From IMG/VR virus record IMGVR_UViG_2698536618_000025: 8,216 bases of DNA; one strand, given 5' to 3'. Below the pieces are notes generated by a model that saw only the letters and a program-made list of their open reading frames with translations, searched no databases and was not told the origin of the DNA. Positions 5,640 through 6,271 of the stretch are shown here, in pieces. Source of the stretch: a virus (lineage: Duplodnaviria > Heunggongvirae > Uroviricota > Caudoviricetes). The position numbers and the translations under genes were made by a program. How positions within the stretch are numbered: the first letter of the stretch is position 1; the number at the start of each line of letters is the position of its first letter.

Positions 5640-5655
5640 AAGTGCTCTTGTGTTA

Positions 5656-5667
5656 AGGTGGCCACCT
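5656..5667. promoter_or_regulatory. Perfect 12-bp palindrome AGGTGGCCACCT (candidate operator) in the divergent intergenic region
   Basis: Exact palindrome at 5656-5667; related half-site AGGTGACCAC at 5691-5700; located between the minus-strand small-ORF module and the plus-strand RHH ORF. Confidence 0.3.
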
Positions 5668-5760
5668 AACAATGGAAAGGCCAATTCAATAGGTGACCAC
5701 TTGTCAACAATCAAACGCGATAAAAGCCCTAAAGGGGACGGGCAATCCCCACAATTCAGA

Positions 5761-5892
5761 ATGCGAATTTCTCCAGAGCTAAAAGAGCAATTCGACAAAG
5801 AAGCACAGAGCGACGGCATAAGCCTAGCCAACTGGCTTAAAGAGTTGGGGCGCACTGAACTAAAGCGGCGCGGCATAGAACCCAAAGGATAA
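5761..5892 (+). CDS. Ribbon-helix-helix (Arc/CopG-like) DNA-binding protein, 43 aa
   Basis: MRISPELKEQFDKEAQSDGISLANWLKELGRTELKRRGIEPKG: beta-strand with alternating residues, helix, Gly turn, second helix, as in RHH repressors/antitoxins. No clear SD upstream of the ATG; frame is open further upstream (track 5620-5892), so the start is uncertain. Confidence 0.4.
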   Translation: MRISPELKEQFDKEAQSDGISLANWLKELGRTELKRRGIEPKG

Positions 5893-5934
5893 AAACTATC
5901 AGCGCCGTGGTGTGAGGTATTACGGCGCATTGCT

Positions 5935-6123
5935 ATGCAGGACAACACAATGACCGATAAAGAATTGACCAAAACATTATCACCGGCACGGAAAAGACGG
6001 CGCAGAAAGATAGAGCATGAATCAGAAAGATTCGCACCATGTGCTTTTGCCCTTGAGCAATTTCTTAAAGAGTACAGGGAAAAGCGCTCATTGCAGGTAT
6101 GGCAACGAACTGAACCAGACTGA
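5935..6123 (+). CDS. Hypothetical small basic protein (62 aa; alternative start at 5950)
   Basis: Same frame as and 42 nt downstream of the RHH ORF; protein-like helical/basic sequence (..SPARKRRRRKIEHESERF..EQFLKEYREKR..). No SD. The opposite strand is also open here, so coding strand is unresolved. Confidence 0.2.
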   Translation: MQDNTMTDKELTKTLSPARKRRRRKIEHESERFAPCAFALEQFLKEYREKRSLQVWQRTEPD

Positions 6124-6271
6124 TTGCATTGCCCACCAGCCTGATAGCGGCTATCATCCCCGTGCTTATGTTTGGGATCACATACACATAAGGCGCAGCG
6201 GGTTAATTGTTCAGAAAGGCTGCTCCATATCGGGGCCGCTTTTTTCGTGTTTGTCATATCTGTGATACCCG

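Follow-up and report, generated by a model that had tools for sequence, protein, structure and literature searches.

An Arc-like ribbon-helix-helix gene with co-varying palindromes lies antisense to a selectively open frame in an alpA phage satellite of Escherichia coli

The DNA analysed here, below called the window, is the 8,216-nucleotide (nt) stretch of IMG/VR record IMGVR_UViG_2698536618_000025. It is an int-alpA phage satellite of E. coli, which in a near-identical genome is inserted beside tRNA-Pro and yejM, and by gene content it is a phage-inducible chromosomal island (PICI) or capsid-forming PICI (cf-PICI) with P4-like immunity RNAs. All recognisable genes of the window lie on the minus strand apart from one small cassette between alpA and the early genes, which lies on the plus strand. 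This cassette encodes an Arc-like ribbon-helix-helix (RHH) protein of 63 amino acids (aa) behind two palindromes that co-vary with its predicted recognition residues, and the minus strand across the same DNA is open far beyond chance. Probably, this is a regulatory cassette placed backwards in an AlpA-driven operon, which combines an autoregulated repressor of the early operon with a translated bridge like eta of phage P4. Coordinates are collected in Table 1, and related loci are denoted by L numbers where they have to be told apart.

The Arc-like protein

An earlier reading of the window from its letters alone (the sequence-only reading) listed a 43-aa open reading frame (ORF) of RHH type at 5761-5892, a 62-aa ORF at 5935-6123 in the same frame, an open minus frame at 5592-6257 and a perfect palindrome at 5656-5667, all of which are present. 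The 43-aa ORF is the C-terminal two thirds of the gene described here. With the translation from TTG 5701 as query, homologues were found in 54 clusters of 63-64 aa, 62-95% identical and aligned over 100% of the query, in Providencia, Erwinia, Xenorhabdus, Morganella, Proteus, Dickeya, Pantoea, Edwardsiella, Sodalis, Pectobacterium and Serratia. The full-length protein is thus found in at least 11 enterobacterial genera, and it also occurs in Pasteurella. The codon at the position of TTG 5701 is ATG in L008, L016 and L018, and several alleles carry ATG or GTG there. The start was placed at TTG 5701 and not at ATG 5761 because the homologues are full length and because ATG is found at that codon in other alleles. 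With the start moved, AGGTGA at 5691-5696, five bases upstream, is a good Shine-Dalgarno (SD) sequence. The earlier statement that neither plus-strand ORF has a clear SD therefore no longer holds.

An exhaustive search of 1.84 billion representatives gave a family of 137 relatives, mostly of 40-100 residues. This is a small group of stand-alone RHH proteins, not full HicB antitoxins, and the gene is carried by only 5 of 50,697 phage records. Compared with PDB, the family profile matched P22 Arc (1b28/1myl, E=0.006) over Arc residues 2-48. The AlphaFold2 (AF2) model of the protein had a predicted local distance difference test score (pLDDT) of 83.9, and of more than 90 for residues 20-60. It has a strand-helix-helix layout, with an extended segment at residues 17-24 and helices at 25-37 and 42-56, after a basic N-terminal arm. 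In Foldseek the best seven matches were Arc, followed by AmrZ, NikA and CopG, with template-modelling scores up to 0.89 and a root-mean-square deviation of 0.8 A. PF05534 of Pfam was matched by 37 of the 43 family members, and others matched NikA-like, RHH_5, Arc, RHH_1 and RHH_10 profiles; the protein of the window reached 20.4 bits, just under the cut-off of 21. It is because of the PF05534 matches that homologues are named 'toxin-antitoxin system HicB family antitoxin' at NCBI. Additionally, the protein matched phrog_228, 'Arc-like repressor' (1.4e-6). Judged by its modelled fold and by its sequence profile alike, the 63-aa protein is a new member of the RHH (MetJ/Arc) superfamily, as the sequence-only reading had supposed from the shorter ORF. 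The profile searches proposed in that reading thus led to Arc and PF05534 for the 63-aa family, and gave no Pfam match for the 57-aa (see below) and 221-aa frames.

That reading also called the coding strand ambiguous. Three-base periodicity was rejected as a test of strand because the minus 221-aa frame shares its third codon positions with both plus genes, which makes periodicity blind to strand. Among ten diverged RHH alleles the pairwise differences at plus-strand codon positions 1, 2 and 3 were 0.217, 0.169 and 0.588, respectively. Mean amino-acid identity across these alleles was 72% in the plus frame versus 64% in the minus frame, and the BLOSUM62 score per site was higher in the plus frame for 44 of 45 allele pairs; the alignments were guided by the plus proteins, which introduces a slight bias. 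The lower variation at position 2 and the higher plus-frame BLOSUM scores indicate that the plus strand is the protein-coding strand and under selection at the protein level. For the 57-aa gene the evidence is thinner and points the same way, as changes in its core (EHESERFAPCAFALE.FLKEY) fall mostly at third positions, including an AGA/CGA exchange that is synonymous on the plus strand and would be non-synonymous on the opposite one, and as its product matches a PHROG family. The ambiguity is hence settled as far as protein coding goes, and retains some truth in that the minus frame itself appears to be selected to stay open. The reverse outcome, no RHH match together with a minus frame conserved as product, was looked for and is not what was found.

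Putative operators and recognition residues

What had been taken for a half-site related to the palindrome AGGTGGCCACCT is a full second 12-bp site, AGGTGACCACTT. The pattern AGGTGNNCACYT occurs in the 8.2-kb window only at 5656-5667 and 5691-5702, with a chance expectation of 0.02, and this count was reached in 0 of 200 shuffles. Each allele has two predicted operators, fixed at -45 to -34 and at -10 to +2 from the RHH start.

In a profile alignment, RHH residues 18, 20 and 22 fall on Arc Q9, N11 and R13, which are the base-contacting side chains in the structure of Arc bound to its operator. R22 is invariant, and across six allele classes the operator sequence co-varies with residues 18 and 20, which face outward from the beta-strand. 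Strand QFRMRI (window, L010, L013, L015) goes with sites AGGTG-(GC/GT/AC)-CACCT, PFHMRI (L008, L009, L016) with AGGTGTACACCT, TFQIRI (L018-20, L023) with GTACGTACGTAA and P(P/Q)YQMRL (L004, L006, L011 and Pasteurella L024) with GGTAATTACC. The remaining two classes are asymmetric, AFQIRI of L021 having AGGTGCGTACCT and MFNLRL of L022 having GGTATAGACC as site 1, and in both of them site 2 is an inverted copy of site 1. This co-variation is the pattern expected if the protein reads the sites. Together with their uniqueness in the window and their fixed positions, it strongly suggests that the palindromes behave as operators, as the sequence-only reading had proposed.

Promoters were predicted using a simple sigma-70 matrix. 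For all of the 10 alleles its best two predictions were the same and did not shift in relative position. The predicted cassette promoter is the top plus-strand match of the position weight matrix in all ten; its -35 (TTGnTT) is situated in the T-run of the upstream hairpin, and its extended -10, with consensus TG-n-TA(A/T)(G/T)GT, overlaps the left half of site 1. The second prediction is a leftward early promoter, the -35 of which is a perfect TTGACA in every allele, Ser2 of the RHH protein always being encoded by the TCA that forms it. A -10 of the form TAnnnT is found at a fixed position in 9 of 10 alleles, with site 2 within the spacer. The two predicted start points, near 5666 for the rightward and near 5671 for the leftward promoter, are about 5 bases apart and face each other.

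The open minus frame

In six loci (the window, L002, L004, L005, L006 and L008) the minus frame is free of internal stops. Under a null in which synonymous codons were resampled and spacers shuffled, 6-16 stops would be expected, and P(open) is <= 0.002 for each of these loci. In L006 it is open for 1,413 nt across four plus genes. The remaining two minus frames contain 9-37 stops in the same loci. All plus genes of a locus share one frame, and every insertion or deletion that distinguishes the window from L008 has a length divisible by 3, also outside the plus genes. Of 11 loci compared, 10 have the frame open, over 223-448 codons. In nine of the ten open loci it starts close to the stop of the preceding minus gene (alpA, AntA or Bro-N), at -46 to +14 nt; the exception is L021, where the first start codon comes about 595 nt past that stop. 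A natural control is provided by L016, in which a 1.35-kb PD-T7-1 gene lies in another frame and antisense stops occur at about the null rate. A further codon-null simulation drew on codon usage pooled from the same genes, and is for that reason conservative. In most relatives, then, the openness is far beyond chance and indicates selection on the frame.

The 221-aa translation has no match in Pfam, NCBIfam or PHROG. It is rich in Ser, Leu, Arg and Cys, and its sequence is replaced entirely with each cassette swap while the frame stays open. Database entries of the frame form 657 clusters of 143-386 aa, many of which owe the name 'Icd-like' to a fusion with the first early gene. Such a continuation in frame into the first early gene is seen in L013 and L018-L022. 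Two features of an eta-type ORF can be compared. A long ORF on the same strand adjoining the alpA/vis stop is present (eta of P4 overlaps the vis stop), and the first early gene as C-terminal part of the ORF is present in L013, L018-L022 and many Icd-like database forms and absent in the window. In our analysis the 221-aa frame would best fit a P4 eta-like translated bridge for AlpA-driven read-through, not a conserved protein.

As a separate observation, a genuine BRO-N ORF in L007 (1337-2251, minus strand) continues in frame and without a stop, antisense through the 57-aa and YlcI genes, so that the open antisense frame is here joined to a real domain. The Prokaryotic Genome Annotation Pipeline (PGAP) is inconsistent at the locus (L001, L002, L004, L005, L007, L011), where it gives the minus frame as a hypothetical protein or as a pseudogene named 'Icd-like', 'BRO-N' or 'hypothetical'.

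Conserved layout and the cargo slot

The RHH gene is always on the opposite strand, between alpA, AntA or Bro-N and the primase operon, in Providencia, Dickeya, Edwardsiella, Enterobacter, Morganella, Pectobacterium and other Escherichia islands. An orientation away from the replication operon, noted earlier for the window, is thus a layout conserved across genera. The distance from the RHH start to the first small early gene is about 140 nt, with 50 nt in Morganella L022 and about 130 nt in Pasteurella, where the layout is seen in a 15-kb element deposited as a phage.

The second plus-strand gene most likely encodes 57 aa from ATG 5950 and not the 62 aa of the full ORF, as this ATG is kept in L008 and in nearly all database homologues. 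The protein matches phrog_21027 (E=1.6e-15) and has homologues in 36 clusters, almost all from E. coli or Shigella; no match was found in Pfam, NCBIfam, PADLOC, PDB or the phage records. AF2 predicts a helix at residues 24-54 (pLDDT 72). The linker in front of the gene, which contains a hairpin with an 11-bp stem, is conserved in sequence before every copy of a gene of this type, among them the two tandem copies of L006.

The content of the slot behind the RHH gene is variable. The 57-aa protein is found in E. coli, a 50-aa ORF in Providencia, and nothing in L015, L018-L020 and L023. In Edwardsiella L016/L017 the anti-phage gene PD-T7-1 (4218-5573, plus strand, E=2e-153) comes directly behind the regulator. 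In L010 a SWIM zinc-finger protein occupies the slot, and the gene for a DUF2971 protein comes next, on the other strand. The slot looks like a hotspot for defence and other cargo, distinct from the known P4 hotspot.

In L002 and other sister E. coli islands the segment with operators and RHH gene (about 5636-5895) is swapped at the same junctions for an unrelated YlcI/YnfO gene, and in some islands the whole module is tandemly duplicated. The YlcI form of the slot is also the one found in O157:H7 relatives. The 57-aa protein is also found downstream of these unrelated YlcI regulators. The YlcI/YnfO cassettes carry three allele-specific repeats each: GGTGTCAGCCAC in L002 (3240-3360), GTGTT(G/A)AACAC in L006 (1190-1327) and GTAAG..CTTAC in L005 (1060-1192). 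Because of these allele-specific upstream repeats, the sequences suggest that the YlcI/YnfO proteins, too, are DNA-binding regulators. Membership of the window protein in this family (NF041551) was rejected, as the 43-aa ORF reached 13 bits against a cut-off of 30, whereas the L002 protein, which occupies this slot as well, reached 60.6 bits. Using hhalign, the RHH family aligned in register with four YlcI proteins, at a probability of 3.8% and E 0.011, which is not significant.

On the annotation side, YlcI/YnfO cassettes are the only ones in which PGAP calls a regulator at this place. It leaves the Arc-like gene unannotated in the loci that carry the present cassette (L001, L003, L008, L010, L012), and also in L004 and the first cassette of L011, although the 57-aa allele of this gene is called a hypothetical protein in L006 and L011, as is the related 58-aa gene in L009.

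Proposed mechanism

In the reading we favour, the extended -10 promoter would transcribe the 63-aa RHH gene and the 57-aa cargo gene, with the transcript ending at the 6213-6245 terminator. RHH dimers would occupy the two 12-bp sites, which are 35 bp apart. Binding to site 1, over the cassette -10, would give autoregulation, and binding to site 2, in the spacer of the facing leftward promoter, would repress the early or replication operon. In the resident state the early operon would then be off and the RHH protein held at a steady level. Once a helper phage raises AlpA, a leftward transcript from the alpA promoter would run antisense across the cassette. Translation of the minus frame would let this transcript escape Rho termination, as eta does in phage P4, and the read-through would give early expression that is insensitive to the repressor, the convergent transcription silencing the cassette. 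Judged by the geometry of promoters and operators, the protein may be the 'master repressor' proposed in the sequence-only reading.

Several points weigh against this reading. Both promoters are consensus matches only, and TTGACA is within coding sequence, which means that its conservation may partly come from the protein. At 5682 the window has C where L001, L003, L010, L011 and L012 have T, which changes the early -10 from TAGCCT to TGGCCT with loss of the critical A. This may be a promoter-down mutation of the present copy, and without the key A this copy may therefore not use the leftward promoter. Furthermore, a P4-type promoter with isrK and C4 is situated about 230 nt further left in the window, and the RHH protein is therefore not the sole immunity candidate here. 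In the window, 25 nt and a shift of frame separate the end of the 221-aa frame from the ash ORF, an arrangement that most relatives do not share. Finally, for the RHH gene taken alone, freedom from antisense stops is no more than mildly improbable, with P 0.12-0.49 per allele in eight alleles, and L022 is uninformative (P = 1.0).

A wider claim can be put forward only tentatively, and we lean somewhat against it: that an undescribed two-strand switch holds Gram-negative PICI-type satellites quiescent, made up of an Arc-like repressor with at least six immunity-like specificities, an antisense RNA that resembles sar and covers the ribosome-binding site of the first early gene, and an eta-like frame kept open solely for ribosomes to accompany the AlpA-driven transcript back across the repressor gene. 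If so, the same DNA would be a protein gene in one direction and a sequence-indifferent 'translation track' in the other.

Alternative explanations

The alternative that survives best, although we consider it rather unlikely, is that the RHH protein autoregulates a resident cargo (moron or defence) cassette only and exerts no control over the early operon, the open minus frame still serving read-through. Such a restricted role would suit the variable cargo, with PD-T7-1, the SWIM protein and the 57-aa orphan among it, and site 1 is clearly over the cassette's own -10. It would likewise suit the window, where the early -10 is defective and a separate P4-type promoter comes with the immunity RNAs. 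However, in the five loci without cargo (L015, L018, L019, L020 and L023) the protein would have only itself to regulate. The opposite-strand TTGACA in all alleles and TAnnnT in 9 of 10, with site 2 exactly in the spacer, as well as the conserved distance of about 140 nt between the RHH start and the first early gene, also argue for control of the early operon.

It is improbable that the minus 221-aa frame is a real or additional gene, an Eta/Icd-like long form that would make the locus a true antisense overlapping pair. The PGAP annotation in close relatives and the 657 database clusters could be read in this way, and so could the strongly non-random openness with in-frame indels only, the in-frame fusion to an Icd/Kil-like first early gene in many relatives and the continuation of the L007 BRO-N ORF into the frame. 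The frame nevertheless lacks any family match, and its Ser/Leu/Arg/Cys-rich composition is typical of antisense translation. Its sequence is exchanged wholesale at cassette swaps, amino-acid conservation is poorer than on the plus strand, lengths range over 143-386 aa, and the frame lapses with long cargo (L016).

An RHH-antitoxin-type module had been offered in the sequence-only reading as the other possible identity of the gene; it would here be a type II toxin-antitoxin pair, with a HicB-like RHH antitoxin and the 57-aa protein as toxin. The NCBI name of the homologues and the PF05534 match would speak for it, and the order of a small RHH gene and a small basic protein behind an autoregulated palindromic operator is typical of such modules. 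We nonetheless hold it to be very unlikely, as 63 aa correspond to arm plus RHH core, leaving neither a C-terminal toxin-binding segment nor the N-terminal domain of HicB, and no HicA was found in the window or in 12 related loci. The supposed toxin is one predicted helix matching no toxin family, is absent from the five loci without cargo, is replaced by other genes elsewhere and also occurs behind YlcI. Variable cargo and the lack of a toxin-binding extension therefore speak against a toxin-antitoxin pair, and favour a regulator that heads a resident-state cargo slot.

The notion that the plus ORFs are untranslated shadows of a minus gene, for which one could cite the coinciding third positions that blind periodicity and the frequent PGAP call of the minus ORF alone, has next to no probability given that the RHH protein and not the minus translation is conserved at full length across genera, that it has an Arc-like fold and co-varying operators, that its start codon and SD are kept, and that position 2 varies less than position 1.

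Comparison with known systems

Arc in the immI region of P22 gives the best profile and structure matches, and both proteins have an N-terminal arm followed by strand-helix-helix. In both cases an operator is inside a promoter spacer and the gene is autoregulated (predicted here), and there may also be a sar-like antisense RNA over the ribosome-binding site of the neighbouring gene in our locus. The differences are an identity of about 25%, two 12-bp palindromes 35 bp apart as opposed to the single 21-bp operator of Arc, and a gene that faces away from its proposed target operon, is found in satellites and is embedded antisense in another transcription unit.

With phage P4 the window shares the gene order: int, alpA, long ORF, isrK, C4 and replication genes correspond to int, vis, eta, seqA/CI and alpha, the long ORF being located at the alpA/vis stop with isrK in the place of seqA and C4 in that of CI. 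In relatives the long ORF holds the short first early gene in its C-terminal part, as eta holds kil. According to PMC10111431, which cites Forti et al. 1999 on this, eta is a long ORF coupled to vis, and by being translated it keeps the late transcript from terminating. In such elements, the region that separates alpA from the replication genes is described as a variable 'Bro zone' (PMC10111431). P4 has neither a plus-strand cassette nor a protein repressor, whereas here about 700 nt with an Arc-like gene come between alpA and the eta/ash ORF, the bridge would be antisense to real genes, and in the window bridge and ash ORF are separate.

HicB shares with the present family an RHH module that fits the PF05534 profile, but here there is no HicA neighbour, no N-terminal (RNase H-like) HicB domain and no toxin-binding region. 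'HicB' and 'YlcI/YnfO' have been listed in PICIs as accessory genes only (PMC13612085). The YlcI/YnfO genes (NF041551) occupy the identical slot in the same orientation in sister islands, with upstream repeats of their own (three versus two palindromes here) and weak Arc-like PHROG matches.

A noncontiguous operon has been described for phage phi80, with taiEcA inside the Q late operon (PMC11364771). From gene arrangement alone our layout fits this concept, with minus-strand flanks and a plus-strand cassette: genes of the opposite strand interrupt an operon, antisense transcription can switch them off, and defence cargo is possible (PD-T7-1, L016). Here, however, the insert is a regulator whose putative operators cover a predicted promoter of the host operon, and the operon strand keeps an open frame.

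The Stl/Rpr master repressors of Gram-positive PICIs are likewise located between integration genes and replication module, facing away from the latter, and the role proposed here, to hold the island in quiescence, matches theirs (PMC6092414). They are of an unrelated fold and very different size, and nothing suggests that a helper protein inactivates the RHH protein; the bypass proposed here is via the alpA promoter. For Gram-negative PICIs AlpA has been named as activator and the repressor left open (PMC6092414, PMC11773190), the founding PICI paper of 2018 calling the existence of a repressor 'unclear'.

In the open-access papers and preprints that could be searched, we found no description of a regulator of this kind for AlpA-controlled satellites, in agreement with the sequence-only reading, nor of the combination of an Arc-type autoregulated operator, P4 eta-type read-through and a noncontiguous operon. 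For the question of what keeps Gram-negative PICIs and cf-PICIs silent until the helper arrives, the locus offers a concrete candidate repressor, and the proposed scheme would explain an induction that bypasses the repressor rather than inactivating it. The defined operators and natural specificity alleles predict which residues read which bases. Since the slot behind the repressor holds resident-state cargo including a known anti-phage gene, it also bears on where satellites keep their defence genes. The minus frame would be a clean case of openness selected without selection on sequence, which bears on the debate about antisense overlapping genes. For annotation the locus matters as well, PGAP calling either strand, or pseudogenes, at this position.

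Hairpins and a possible antisense RNA

Hairpins were folded as single sequences; RNAalifold on a MAFFT alignment was uninformative, with stems of unequal length misaligned. The hairpin upstream of the cassette (5595-5639) has -27.9 kcal/mol (z = -5.0) as plus RNA versus -16.4 kcal/mol as minus RNA. Its position is conserved and its stem sequences differ, and the plus RNA is the more stable one in 12 of 12 loci (mean -23.3 versus -16.5 kcal/mol) because of G.U pairs. The hairpin therefore probably works in a plus-strand transcript. A role of 5595-5631 as minus-strand terminator was rejected, as the minus-strand RNA has no U-run and a weaker stem. The A-tract, hairpin and T-tract that close the plus operon resemble a strong terminator when read as plus strand and a weak one when read as minus strand.

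A plus-strand promoter predicted upstream of this hairpin (score 9.8) could give rise to a cis-antisense small RNA. Its extended -10 recurs in position in most loci, including Pasteurella, about 80 nt upstream of the hairpin and within the first few codons of, or just inside, the first early gene, and in part of the loci it overlaps conserved codons, which qualifies the recurrence. We hypothesise that an RNA of about 80 nt, complementary to the SD and the ATG of the first early ORF, acts in the manner of sar. No matching family was found for it in Rfam.

Neighbouring features

The minus genes of the window comprise the integrase (6975-8216), a small ORF, alpA, the 'ash family' ORF, DUF4222, a RepA-type helicase, a terminase small subunit-like gene and a capsid gene. 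The alpA product, named 'helix-turn-helix transcriptional regulator' by PGAP, scores below the Pfam gathering cut-offs, with 17.6 bits against 21 for PF05930 (E=0.0035) and 16.5 bits against 27 for PF12728 (E=0.01). The 'ash family protein' pseudogenes given by PGAP overlie the isrK and C4 RNAs.

Table 1. Coordinates of observed and predicted features in the window (strand given where assigned)
Feature	Position	Strand	Remarks
Predicted cis-antisense small RNA with promoter	5525..5639	+	-35 TTGTGT 5525-5530, 17-nt spacer, -10 TATGAT 5548-5553; RNA about 5560-5639
GC-rich hairpin and T-run	5595..5639	+	plus-strand terminator orientation; T-run supplies the cassette -35
Predicted cassette promoter	5630..5659	+	-35 TTGCTT 5630-5635, 18-nt spacer, extended -10 TG-T-TAAGGT 5651-5659
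Putative operator 1, perfect palindrome AGGTGGCCACCT	5656..5667		overlaps -10 of cassette promoter
Predicted leftward early promoter	5678..5707	-	-35 TTGACA 5707->5702 over RHH codons 1-3, 18-nt spacer, -10 5683->5678
Putative operator 2, AGGTGACCACTT	5691..5702		overlaps RHH SD and start codon; in spacer of predicted leftward promoter
Arc-like RHH gene, 63 aa	5701..5892	+	TTG start, TAA stop; contains the 43-aa ORF 5761-5892
Linker hairpin GCGCCGTGGTG...TATTACGGCGC	5902..5928	+	between regulator and partner genes; 11-bp stem, no T-run; -16.9 kcal/mol, z = -2.9
57-aa orphan 'partner' or cargo gene	5950..6123	+	ATG 5950; basic N-terminus, one long helix; within 62-aa ORF 5935-6123
A-tract, hairpin, T-tract	6213..6245		end of plus operon, 27 nt from alpA stop; -15.5 kcal/mol, z = -2.6
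221-aa open frame	5592..6257	-	ATG 6257, 14 nt after alpA stop; CxxC...CxxC near N-terminus
alpA (HTH_17/AlpA family)	6272..6478	-	upstream gene; late transcription would enter the region from here
'ash family' / P4 eta-like ORF	5006..5566	-	SD AGGAG (5572-5576), ATG 5566-5564; Pfam Phage_ASH 7e-17
P_LE-like promoter within ash ORF	5473->5444	-	promoter scan
isrK within ash ORF	5437->5361	-	Rfam, 66 bits
C4 RNA within ash ORF	5339->5252	-	Rfam, 77.6 bits

A terminator-like hairpin with GCGTTTTCTG (5511-5531, minus strand) is found within the ash ORF, about 10 codons from its start; it precedes the P4-type promoter and isrK, and could be an attenuator for transcripts arriving from the right. 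In Providencia L013 the int-alpA RNA motif of Rfam was matched with 45.6 bits (7003-7072, minus strand), between the integrase and a 219-aa ORF and about 850 nt upstream of alpA; the window has no match to this family at E<=1. Between its 83-aa ORF and alpA the window has a strong minus-strand terminator at 6615-6638.

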